DNA from: an uncultured Poribacteria bacterium | GTDB taxonomy: Bacteria; Poribacteria; WGA-4E; WGA-3G | NCBI GenBank assembly: GCA_958296135.2 | Contig: CATQHZ020000001.1 | Location: forward strand, 1,664,001-1,728,000 | Direction of reading: 5' to 3' | Length of the DNA stretch: 64,000 nt | In this document: one piece after another, positions 7,993 to 46,723 of the stretch | Layout: each line of letters opens with the position of its first letter | How positions within the stretch are numbered: position 1 is the stretch's first letter | The notes under the pieces: generated by a model | Databases searched by the model: none | The model's input: only the letters and a program-made list of their open reading frames with translations | Told to the model about the DNA's origin: nothing | Position numbers and translations under genes: made by a program

Positions 7993-8216
7993 TGGCGAGG
8001 GACAGTGGACATCTCTGCAGCGAGGCTGCAGAGATGACAAAGTTAAAGTAAGTAAGGTAGCGTGTTTACGCGGGGCGACACACGCACTTTTTCTGTAGAC
8101 GTGACCGTGCTTTCGCGAGGCGACACACGCACGTTTGCTGTAGGCGTGACCGTGTTTACGCGTGGCGACACACGCACATTTTCAGTAGGCGTGACCGTGA
8201 CGGCCCGCGCCCTACG
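7993..8216. repeat. Composite repeat: REP-like palindrome interrupted by a nested hairpin element with three 45-bp tandem units
   Basis: tggcgagggaca[gtggacatctctgcagcgaggctgcagagatgacaaag...]ggcccgcgccctacg; 45-bp units start at 8061, 8106, 8151. Confidence 0.85.
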
Positions 8217-12872: not shown

Positions 12873-13080
12873 TGGCGAGGGCCGTTACGGGCACGCCTAC
12901 AGAAAAAGTGCGTGTGTCGCCCCGCGTAAGCAAGCTACCTTACTTTAACTTTGTCATCTGCTGTCGATCGTGTTGGCGTTCTGTTTACAGAACGCCGAAG
13001 ATGTGTCTTCCATAAACGGAAGACACTGCACGATCGACTGAGCTGCCGCCTCGCTGCAGAGATGTCCACTGTCCCTCGCC
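12873..13080. repeat. Composite REP plus nested structured element (long variant, inverted relative to the 7993-8216 copy)
   Basis: tggcgagggcc[gttacg...gatgtccac]tgtccctcgcc; shares blocks with 7993-8216. Confidence 0.85.
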
Positions 13081-14284: not shown

Positions 14285-15034
14285 TTAAGAAAACAACAAA
14301 GGCAGTGCTAACTGCAACGCCTTGGCTCTGTGGCTGATGCGGTTCTTGCGCTCCTCTCCTAATTCTGCAAACGTTTTGTCATAGCCGTTGGGAATAAAAA
14401 CCGGGTCATAGCCGAAGCCGCCTGTTCCCATCGGAGACAGGGTAATGTGCCCTTCGCAAACCCCGATAACTACCTGGGGGTTATCTGCATGGCTGTCGTC
14501 TGCCCTAGTCCCTCGCTCTACGGTTGCAAGAGTGCGAGGGACAGGTTTGGCGATAGCAACGGCCGCGACGAAACGCGCGGCTCTATTCGGATTTCCCTCA
14601 AGTGCTTCCAGCAACTTTGCAATCCGCATCGCGTCGGAAGCATCCTCGCCGGCCCAGCGTTTTGACTGAACCCCCGGGGCACCGCTGAGTGCCGCGACTT
14701 CTAATCCTGCATCGTCGGCGAGGGTGAGATGGCCGGTGTAATCCGCGATGACCTCGGCTTTTTTACAAGCATTCTCCGCGTAAGTCTCGCCATCTTCGAT
14801 GATTTCTGGCGCGCTCGGAAAATCCTGCAATGTGCAAATCTGCAGCAACGGCGATTTGGCATCGTGGCGAGGGACAATGGACATCCCTGTTGGGAAACCT
14901 GCAGAGATGCCAACGTTTCGGCGTGGCGGCCCTCGCCCTACGGTAACCGAATCTTCCAGCTTTACAGCGTCGTGCAGCATATCTGTCAATTCACGCACTT
15001 TGCCGGCGTTACGGGTTGCCAAGACGAGCTTCAT
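14285..15034 (-). CDS. rdgB: Non-canonical purine NTP pyrophosphatase (RdgB/HAM1) with two repeat-derived insertions
   Basis: [36 protein letters not shown]; follows rph; 249 aa versus ~200 typical. Confidence 0.93.
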
Positions 15035-27950: not shown

Positions 27951-28520
27951 CCCGGACTACCGCCATCTCCTCTGCAGATCGACGCGTGGCGCGGCACAGG
28001 ACCGCGCCCTACGGACTAAGGGCATTTTCACTGAAGGGCCCTTTTCACCGTAGCGCGAGGGCCTGTCCCTCGCGATCGTTCGACCACACCAAAAACACCC
28101 GAAGCCCCGGGACTTCTCTGTAGGTCGATGCATGGCGCGGCACAGGACCGCGCCCTACGGACTAAGGGGCTTTTAACCGCTGCATGGCGCGGCACAAGAC
28201 CGCGCCCTACGGACTAAGGGGCCCTTTTTACCATCGCGCGAGGGCCTGTCCCTCGCGATCGTCCACGCGACAAGAAAGGCCCTTTTCACCGTAGCGCGAG
28301 GGCCCGGCGATCGCGAATCGCCGAGGGTTCCCCTCGCGATCGTCCGAACCACACGAACCCCCTTTCACCGTAGCGCGAGGGCCTGTCCCTCGCGATCCCT
28401 CTTGAGAGACCGATGCATGGCGCGGCACAGGACCGCGCCCTACGGTAGAAGGGGCCCTTTTTACCATCGCCTGGCGAGGCACAAGACCTCGCCCTACGGA
28501 CTAAGGGCCCCTCGCGATAG
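27951..28520. repeat. BIME-like cluster of REP-like palindromes
   Basis: Alternating ccgtagcgcgagggcctgtccctcgcga and tggcgcggcacaggaccgcgccctacgg units. Confidence 0.9.
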
Positions 28521-40085: not shown

Positions 40086-40161
40086 CGCGAGGGACAGTGG
40101 ACAGCTCTGCAGCGAGGCTGCAGAGATGACAAAATTTCGGCTAACGGCCCTCGCGCTACGG
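40086..40161. repeat. Composite REP plus 50-bp nested hairpin element
   Basis: cgcgagggaca[gtggacagctctgcagcgaggctgcagagatgacaaaatttcggctaac]ggccctcgcgctacgg. Confidence 0.85.
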
Positions 40162-40269
40162 ACGCGGCGGAGCCTAAGGCACGGTTACACCGTAGGACGA
40201 GGGCCTGTCCCTCGTCATGTATTGAAAACTGAGGGAAGTCGTAAGACACAGCAGGAGGAACCTTAACAA

Positions 40270-46645: not shown

Positions 46646-46723
46646 CGTAGCGCGGGGGCCGTTACGCCGAAACTTTGTCATCTCTGCAGCCTCGCTGCAG
46701 AGATGTCCACTGTCCCCCCGCGA
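46646..46723. repeat. Composite REP plus 50-bp nested hairpin element
   Basis: cgtagcgcgggggcc[gttacg...gatgtccac, 46661-46710]tgtccccccgcga. Confidence 0.85.

Follow-up and report, generated by a model that had tools for sequence, protein, structure and literature searches.

A small hairpin cassette in the loop of GTAG-tagged REPs of an uncultured Poribacteria bacterium looks like a tiny mobile element

The described systems that come closest to the repeats considered here are the REP/RAYT systems, including REPtrons and REPINs, a REPIN being two inverted REPs in one long hairpin. The E. coli enzyme TnpA-REP cleaves CC^T (type I site TGCC^TGAT; the caret marks the cut) and needs both the GTAG tag and a mismatch in the stem (PMC3333891). 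Cleavage by the E. coli and S. maltophilia enzymes is at C^T, and only a C can serve as the attacking 3' base (PMC8266576). In some GTAG families the tag occurs as the variant GTGG (PMC3733652). REPs have also been found nested in larger palindromes, as with GTAG-15 of A. variabilis, GTAG-23 of T. roseum and CGTC-1 of H. neapolitanus (PMC3733652). How REPs spread has been described as unresolved (PMC8266576). A survey of insertion sequences that target REPs does not use the term 'non-autonomous' (PMC1525189), and a full-text search of the literature, with subscription journals and supplements outside its scope, found no account of a short non-coding insert in the loop of REPs.

The DNA analysed here is a window of 64,000 nucleotides (the whole stretch, C1:1664001-1728000) in the main contig, C1 (5.01 Mb, 54% G+C), of an uncultured Poribacteria genome, G000 (5.19 Mb assembly). 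Some of the repeats that it shares with the rest of the genome carry a short insert in their apical loop, called cassette A below. This cassette looks like a tiny mobile element and could show REP cutting and rejoining. For comparison, 30 relatives were searched: the sister species G001 and G002, which differ from G000 by about 15-18% in their genes, together with G004 and 27 others.

A cassette in the REP loop

The host repeat is a classical GTAG-tagged REP. Its consensus, CCGTAG-CGCGAGGG-CCTGT-CCCTCGCG, places the conserved GTAG tetranucleotide 5' of a short, imperfect palindrome. Copy number is high, arrays are seen, and most copies are extragenic as judged from crude gene calls. There is also a Y1 gene with flanking repeats, as expected of a REPtron: the L002 open reading frame lies among empty REPs and REPs filled with A or with a second module, B. 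A scan for GTAG plus stem finds 1714 left halves in G000, and for 1524 of them a right stem that pairs follows no more than 500 nt away. Of these stem-paired REPs, 803 have the empty 5-nt loop CCTGT and about 720 another loop; the loop state AAA(A)CCTGT has 79 copies. The window provides a reference for the uninterrupted loop, an empty REP right beside one of the filled copies (Table 1), with the empty-loop sequence GAGGGCCTGTCCCTC at 40199-40213. Its fold is a stem of 8 bp closed by a loop of 5 nt (z = -4.45), and it has an orthologous empty REP in G001.

Module B is a 28-nt REP loop (CCCGGCGATCGCGAATCGCCGAGGGTTC) with a small hairpin of its own, found for example at 28291-28338 of the window and at 139 other genome sites. 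There are 139 copies with the 28-nt loop and 46 with an extra AAAA, a total of about 185 in G000 compared with one in G001 and none in G002. The idea that B is a simple insertion was rejected, as 26 nt replace TGT and CC^TGT is not split.

Five window loci had been described in the earlier note as REPs split at the same point. All five are real and are confirmed by sequence. In each, the REP loop is divided between CC and TGT by cassette A, so that ...GGGCC stands on one side of the insert and TGTCCC... on the other, as the halves of an empty REP loop (Table 1). The 23-mer of the right end, GCTGCAGAGATGTCCACTGTCCC, has four matches in the window at up to 3 mismatches and none in 100 shuffles; the copy at 14866, outside these four, is a diverged fifth member. 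The insert sizes of about 50, 186 and 197 bp given before correspond to measured lengths of 197, 186, 51, 49 and 50 nt, the core hairpin CATCTCTGCAGC/GCTGCAGAGATG is present, and the three 45-bp tandem units of the copy at 7993 were recovered by TRF. Two points need correction. Of the proposed ends GTTAC...GTCCAC the right one stands, whereas the left one is GTYAC, with GTTAC and GTCAC occurring about 50:50. Likewise, REP halves are present at all five loci, but the copy at 12873 has no GTAG tag. Contigs from four runs of one sample that cover the region are interrupted at each repeat; examples are the gaps from 40115 to 40189 and from 46658-46675 to 46775.

Table 1. Filled and empty REPs of the window and their parts (window coordinates; rc, reverse complement)
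Feature	Position	Strand	Parts
Filled REP, copy 1	7994..8215	-	right stem (rc) 7994-8001; ACA 8002-8004; A 8005-8201 (197 nt); GG 8202-8203; left stem (rc) 8204-8211; CTAC (rc of GTAG) 8212-8215
C module, three tandem 45-nt units in cassette A of copy 1	8061..8199	-	TRF: period 45, 3.1 copies, 87% matches
Filled REP, copy 2 (no GTAG tag)	12874..13080	+	left stem 12874-12881; CC 12882-12883; A 12884-13069 (186 nt); TGT 13070-13072; right stem 13073-13080
Filled REP, copy 3 (diverged)	14866..14941	-	stem 14866-14873; ACA 14874-14876; A 14877-14927 (51 nt); GG 14928-14929; stem 14930-14937; CTAC 14938-14941
Filled REP, copy 4	40086..40159	-	stem 40086-40093; ACA 40094-40096; A 40097-40145 (49 nt); GG 40146-40147; stem 40148-40155; CTAC 40156-40159
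Empty REP beside copy 4	40193..40216	+	GTAG-GACGAGGG-CCTGT-CCCTCGTC; reference for the uninterrupted loop
Filled REP, copy 5	46647..46722	+	GTAG 46647-46650; stem 46651-46658; CC 46659-46660; A 46661-46710 (50 nt, consensus form); TGT 46711-46713; right stem 46714-46722

Copy 1 can be parsed as GTAG-GGCGCGGG...CCCTCGCC with a loop of 202 nt. The cassette of copy 2 consists of one C unit plus a nested hairpin, module D (~86 nt), in the left arm of the inner hairpin. Copy 5, folded as DNA, keeps the outer 8-bp REP stem and gains an inner 12-bp hairpin; a filled REP folds in this way as single-stranded DNA with z = -5.2 and -4.1 on the two strands, the former being the value for copy 5.

Across G000 the right end of A occurs 231 times, always on contig C1, and the number of copies is about 230. 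The second contig, C2 (143,886 bp), has none; its G+C content is 36.8% compared with 54.4% for the chromosome, and it may represent contamination or a replicon of foreign origin. For 134 of the 231 right ends the left end is found at a constant 37 nt. This is the basic form, 50 nt of near-invariant consensus running from GTYAC to GTCCAC, with a single 12-bp inner hairpin (3-nt loop) separated by 18 nt from the left end and by 5 nt from the right one, inserted at CC^TGT. The right end is followed by TGT in 212 of 230 copies and the left end is preceded by GGCC in 145 of 158 among those listed. A therefore has a fixed short target on its 5' side, as IS200/IS605-type elements do: GGCC in REPs, and GACC in a second family of hairpins, family S. 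Terminal inverted repeats are absent. The earlier note had seen no clear target duplication, and there is indeed none; the junctions read GGGCC^...^TGTCCC, with one ambiguous C.

Longer forms of A grow in steps of one first unit and then 45-nt units. Genome-wide there are 109 such units in 66 arrays, 64 of which sit directly behind GGGCC-GTYACGG. Module D represents a third level of nesting, with hairpins of its own inside the left arm of A's inner hairpin. It has nine sites in the genome (window 12961-13046, C1:1144626-1144715 and 4557033-4557068, plus six more), at least three of them inside A.

The inner stem is perfect in 46 of 111 basic copies, and one of its base pairs shows a compensatory change in four copies. 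Another 43 of the 111 share a single uncompensated C.T mismatch at the same inner-stem pair. Perhaps this mismatch matters for recognition, by analogy with E. coli, because binding by the RAYT there needs a stem mismatch (PMC3333891). Read on its reverse strand, A starts GTGG-A-hairpin. A genome search found no free-standing copy outside the loops of REPs or family S, and the G000 assembly contains neither another homologue of A nor a tandem joint of right end and left end such as a circle would leave. Copies are mostly intergenic according to crude ORF-based gene calls. Some of the ORFs called extend through REP arrays, which makes the 'in gene' classes unreliable, so relative to flanking genes the tandem classes alone were used; they give 41 copies in the same and 29 in the opposite orientation.

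Insertion, amplification and the sister species

A behaves as a discrete insertion and not as a REP variant: it is precise, occurs in multiple host contexts, is confined to one species and is oriented. With a little more than even confidence, and going by sequence comparison, we read it as a miniature non-autonomous hairpin module that has been inserted many times, in fixed orientation, into the apical loop of GTAG hairpins by a Y1/HUH enzyme of the RAYT type. The earlier note had put forward two origins, a non-autonomous element of REP loops mobilised in trans and an ancient insertion amplified together with the REP. The first is the best fit, in view of several stems, empty paralogues and empty sisters. 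The second is not, although composite spread probably also occurs (4/4 sites, discussed below).

What if A had entered a REP only once? In that scenario, one ancient insertion or rearrangement would have produced an A-bearing REP variant, the composite would have been amplified by the REP's own RAYT, and the other stems would have arisen later. We consider this unlikely, yet part of the evidence does point that way. Among the 117 basic copies, 83 have one stem, CGCGAGGG, and are nearly identical, the remainder being divided between GGCGAGGG (22), CGCGGGGG (11) and TGCGGGGG (1). A RAYT-like gene lies amid A-filled REPs, as in a REPtron, and a weak outer flank consensus is common to A-filled and empty REPs. 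However, the three commonest A-bearing stem types are listed among the empty REPs of G001, and the degenerate pattern for empty REPs (a 25-mer with at most one mismatch, as for the G002 count) is abundant in both sisters. It has 937 matches in G001 and 4157 in G002, with 536 in G000, two in G004 and none in the other 27 relatives. This argues that the stems are not later derivatives. Three or four of the A-bearing stem types are present within the window alone, and the four types among the basic copies settle an earlier question, whether the REP flanks belong to different subfamilies, in the affirmative. A single monophyletic REP flank with no empty alleles, the outcome that the earlier note had named as speaking against an insertion, is not what the genome contains, as there are several stems and empty paralogues. 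The load of 4157 empty REPs in G002 is unusually high; the Y1 genes found in that genome are one intact and one broken.

The cassette has a much narrower distribution than its host. In the same-search comparison there are 217 copies of A in G000 and none in all 30 relatives. An exact 20-mer of A has one chance coding match each in ~185,000 species genomes and in a metagenome contig collection, public scans that may leave out the window's own genome. A is thus restricted to the species of G000, and the host REP is older than A.

Another observation that does not fit amplification of a composite comes from paralogues within G000. BLAST of 150-nt flanks yields five pairs of an A-filled and an empty REP, and in 5/5 the stems are identical and the loop indel alone differs. 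In the two pairs that were aligned it is a clean 50-nt indel between flanks up to 99% and 97% identical. B-filled and empty paralogues behave in the same way (4/4 pairs), even in one pair whose mismatched stem is rare. Nor do the haplotypes of A follow the stem: nine variable sites show no association with stem class (111 copies, permutation p = 0.88).

A is also found at the same CC^TGT in family S, which is unrelated to the REP and resembles it at the junction in CC and TGT only. This, too, goes against a composite. Family S is a hairpin of about 60-70 nt present across the genus, CTCTGTAGGT.GAGAT.CGCC...GACC-TGT-TCGGG...GGCGAGCCCGAACTACAGAG, with GTAG on the 5' side and CTAC on the 3' side, and it is often flanked by ATACCAAAT upstream and ATTTGGTAT downstream. 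Examples on C1 of G000 are L014, L016, L020, L023 and L026-L028; those in G001 and G002 include L063, L065 and L069. The family is low-copy: a 19-nt motif has 14 matches, and three more S-like loci that bear A were included. The cassette lies at GACC^TGT in the apical loop of at least seven S copies, five complete and two partial, whereas in G001 and G002 the family is empty. An Rfam search with the 17 loci, seven of them with the cassette, gave no match except for a chance hit (E = 0.098). Family S may be REPIN-like, because S-like repeats flank a RAYT gene in G002, whose protein is 56% identical to that of L001, a Y1 gene of G000.

The orthologous sites tell a different story. The earlier note had proposed looking for empty sites in relatives, and the same stem types are indeed empty in the sisters, but at 4/4 orthologous sites there is no REP at all. 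Intergenic alignments of the four sites examined place no REP at the positions of 14866, 40086 and 46646 in G001 or G002. At 12873 the sister sequences align poorly, no REP aligns with the G000 copy, and the longer gap in G002 holds an unrelated REP-like sequence. Because the sisters have no REP there, the four window copies are no evidence that A entered an empty REP already in place. REP and A may have arrived together, or the REP first and A afterwards; turnover is to be expected because the species are ~15-18% apart in their genes, and at this gene divergence the sites are compatible with both. REP plus A being wholly new at all four sites is nevertheless what amplification of a composite would predict, and REP+A composites probably also spread as units, as a parallel process.

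Orientation provides a further clue. With clusters collapsed and local GC skew taken as an irregular proxy, copies of A are distributed +6/-25 where the skew is positive and +30/-16 where it is negative (p = 8e-5). Module B shows the same bias (p = 4e-5, clusters collapsed). In contrast, empty REPs are evenly distributed (61/71 where positive, 92/90 where negative, p = 0.49, clusters collapsed). A bias in filled but not empty REPs is expected if a strand-specific event picks its targets from an unbiased pool, and it speaks against amplification of the composite. As for the skew itself, in 100-kb bins along C1 it is positive at ~0.4-1.6 Mb and 2.9-3.2 Mb and negative elsewhere, an irregularity that points to replichores of very different length, to inversions in the past or to faults in the assembly.

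A third possibility is that A spreads by homologous recombination or gene conversion over the short REP arms, with no dedicated transposition. All eight combinations of three biallelic sites inside A occur, a reticulate pattern that also fits gene conversion among copies, and REPs are dense and often arrayed, which would offer many partners. However, the conversion tract would have to end in the loop each time, and the recipient stems are kept in 5/5 A pairs and 4/4 B pairs. The CC and TGT shared with family S are too short for homology, and conversion predicts no orientation bias relative to GC skew. For these reasons it seems improbable. It is more improbable still, to the point of hardly being credible, that filled REPs are host-selected structures (terminators, mRNA stabilisers or protein-binding sites) maintained by selection and not by mobility: good folding on both strands, the compensatory change in four copies and the mostly intergenic location (by crude gene calls) would fit, but perfect inner stems are found in fewer than half of the copies and nearly as many share the uncompensated mismatch, orientation relative to flanking genes is weak, sisters with the same genes and REPs have no A, and the family S loci are without an Rfam match.

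Candidate enzymes and a proposed reaction

If A is a non-autonomous module moved in trans, which enzyme might act on it? G000 has two Y1 genes, L001 and L002. L002 (C1:4791068-4791610) encodes 181 amino acids with an HUH motif and a C-terminal Tyr motif. Its product, a diverged RAYT-like protein, scores 57 bits against the NCBIfam RAYT model, below the cut-off of 80, and lies above the Pfam Y1_Tnp cut-off. Six REPs flank the gene, four filled with A, one with B and one empty, the four A copies being within 1.5 kb; as background, 0.27% of 3.5-kb windows have at least four copies of A. No match to L002 is found in G001 or G002. L002 is therefore a species-specific candidate enzyme for A, which we infer from its position and from three genomes of one genus. 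The L001 protein scores 125 bits and passes the NCBIfam RAYT cut-off, and no copies of A are near its gene. The REPs that flank L001 (C1 ~3.734 Mb), at L001 880-1420 and 1900-2320, belong to another family, GTAGGAGGGACATCC(C/T)TGTCCC, with 170 copies genome-wide.

An autonomous relative was sought as well. The check proposed in the earlier note, whether both ends of A bracket an ORF for a transposase or recombinase, came out negative genome-wide when 160 left ends were paired with right ends, and the 17 far end pairs are separate truncated or variant copies, so an autonomous copy of A was rejected. The note had also pointed out that IS110-family elements and IS1397 target REPs. REP insertion has been published for such elements (PMC1525189), but this does not supply the enzyme here, as the IS110-family domains PF01548 and PF02371 have no matches in G000 (completeness 94.7%). 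C1 also contains 34 TnpB-like genes of several subfamilies with conserved 3' regions, and there is no IS200-type TnpA besides the two RAYT-like genes. TnpB elements were rejected as a source of A, their 3' ends and downstream regions being unrelated to A and to family S.

The chemistry of A is read as that of a RAYT-type Y1/HUH enzyme, and not of IS110, because of the junction and the anatomy. In the orientation of the GTAG strand, A targets GGCC^TGT and its last bases join T as ...CAC^T. Each of the three cuts that A implies would follow a C; what comes next at the left junction is G and not T (C^G). Clues to the active strand conflict. The C^T rule points to the GTAG strand, whereas by the skew bias the GTAG strand would be on the leading-strand template; for IS200/IS605 elements the introduction of PMC3333891 gives the contrary, a preference for the lagging template.

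These features suggest a possible reaction. In a single-strand cut-and-join, a Y1/HUH tyrosine transposase of the RAYT type would open the loop of an extruded REP hairpin at C^T and link the 3' C ends to cassette A. Because of this proposed mode of joining, neither target duplication nor inverted repeats would be expected. The L002 product would be the candidate enzyme, its own gene being flanked by A-filled REPs, and composites of REP and A, once made, would probably spread as units too. Which enzyme acts, which strand it processes and whether a given event inserted A or excised it precisely are what we infer.

A further reading goes beyond this proposal and is put forward tentatively, with less than even confidence. 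Filled REPs might be in vivo footprints of RAYT strand transfer, in which REP, A, 45-nt units and nested hairpin have accreted in that order and in which the orientation bias records the strand at the replication fork. If true, it would provide a defined donor, a defined target and a candidate enzyme for the question of how REPs move.

Comparison with known systems

Among known REP-targeting insertion sequences (IS1397, ISKpn1, IS621, ISPpu9/10 and ISPa11, among others), specific insertion into REPs is a feature shared with A (PMC1525189). However, they are full-length elements of the IS3, IS110, IS4, IS256 and IS5 families with their own transposase, whereas A is 50 nt and non-coding. An IS110/IS621-like element is also distinguished by its DEDD transposase (PF01548 plus PF02371), neither domain of which has a match in G000, in cis or in trans. 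A differs from a MITE in having no terminal inverted repeats and no target-site duplication. The nested-REP palindromes mentioned at the outset likewise have a palindromic repeat in the centre of another. In those, however, the REP is the guest and its targets were not found empty, while here the REP is the host and empty copies are abundant in G000 and its sisters; the literature searched notes the former arrangement and not the latter.

The REP/RAYT systems have in common with the host repeat a GTAG tag, a palindrome that is short and rich in G+C, a very large number of copies and a Y1 gene amid the repeats. In addition, the cassette junction conforms to their rule of a C before the cut, with C^T at the target and on the right side, and the reverse strand of A reads GTGG followed by a hairpin, GTGG being the reported tag variant (PMC3733652). 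What sets A apart is that a foreign cassette in the loop is not described for known REPs or REPINs, and that A never occurs alone. Unlike the second half of a REPIN, A is unrelated to the host REP and is not an inverted copy of it, and the outer stem is a single REP's own.

REP families can host their own parasites. The combination of a precise junction that matches the in vitro RAYT rule, targets that are both empty and filled, empty sister species and a species-specific candidate enzyme could turn REP mobility into a testable reaction.

The IS200/IS605 elements and their palindrome-associated derivatives resemble A in having no inverted repeats, no duplication, a fixed short target and a dependence on hairpins, as well as in what may be a strong orientation bias relative to replication (GC skew, irregular here, being the proxy) and in apparent precise gain or loss. 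There are differences. A has one hairpin, which would have to serve both ends in place of two subterminal hairpins, its target is the apical loop of another hairpin, and G000 has no IS200-type TnpA beyond the two RAYT-like genes, with 34 TnpB elements whose ends are unrelated. A is not a MITE, a REPIN or an IS110 relative; by analogy it would function like a non-autonomous element of the IS200/IS605 type, minus the two subterminal hairpins.
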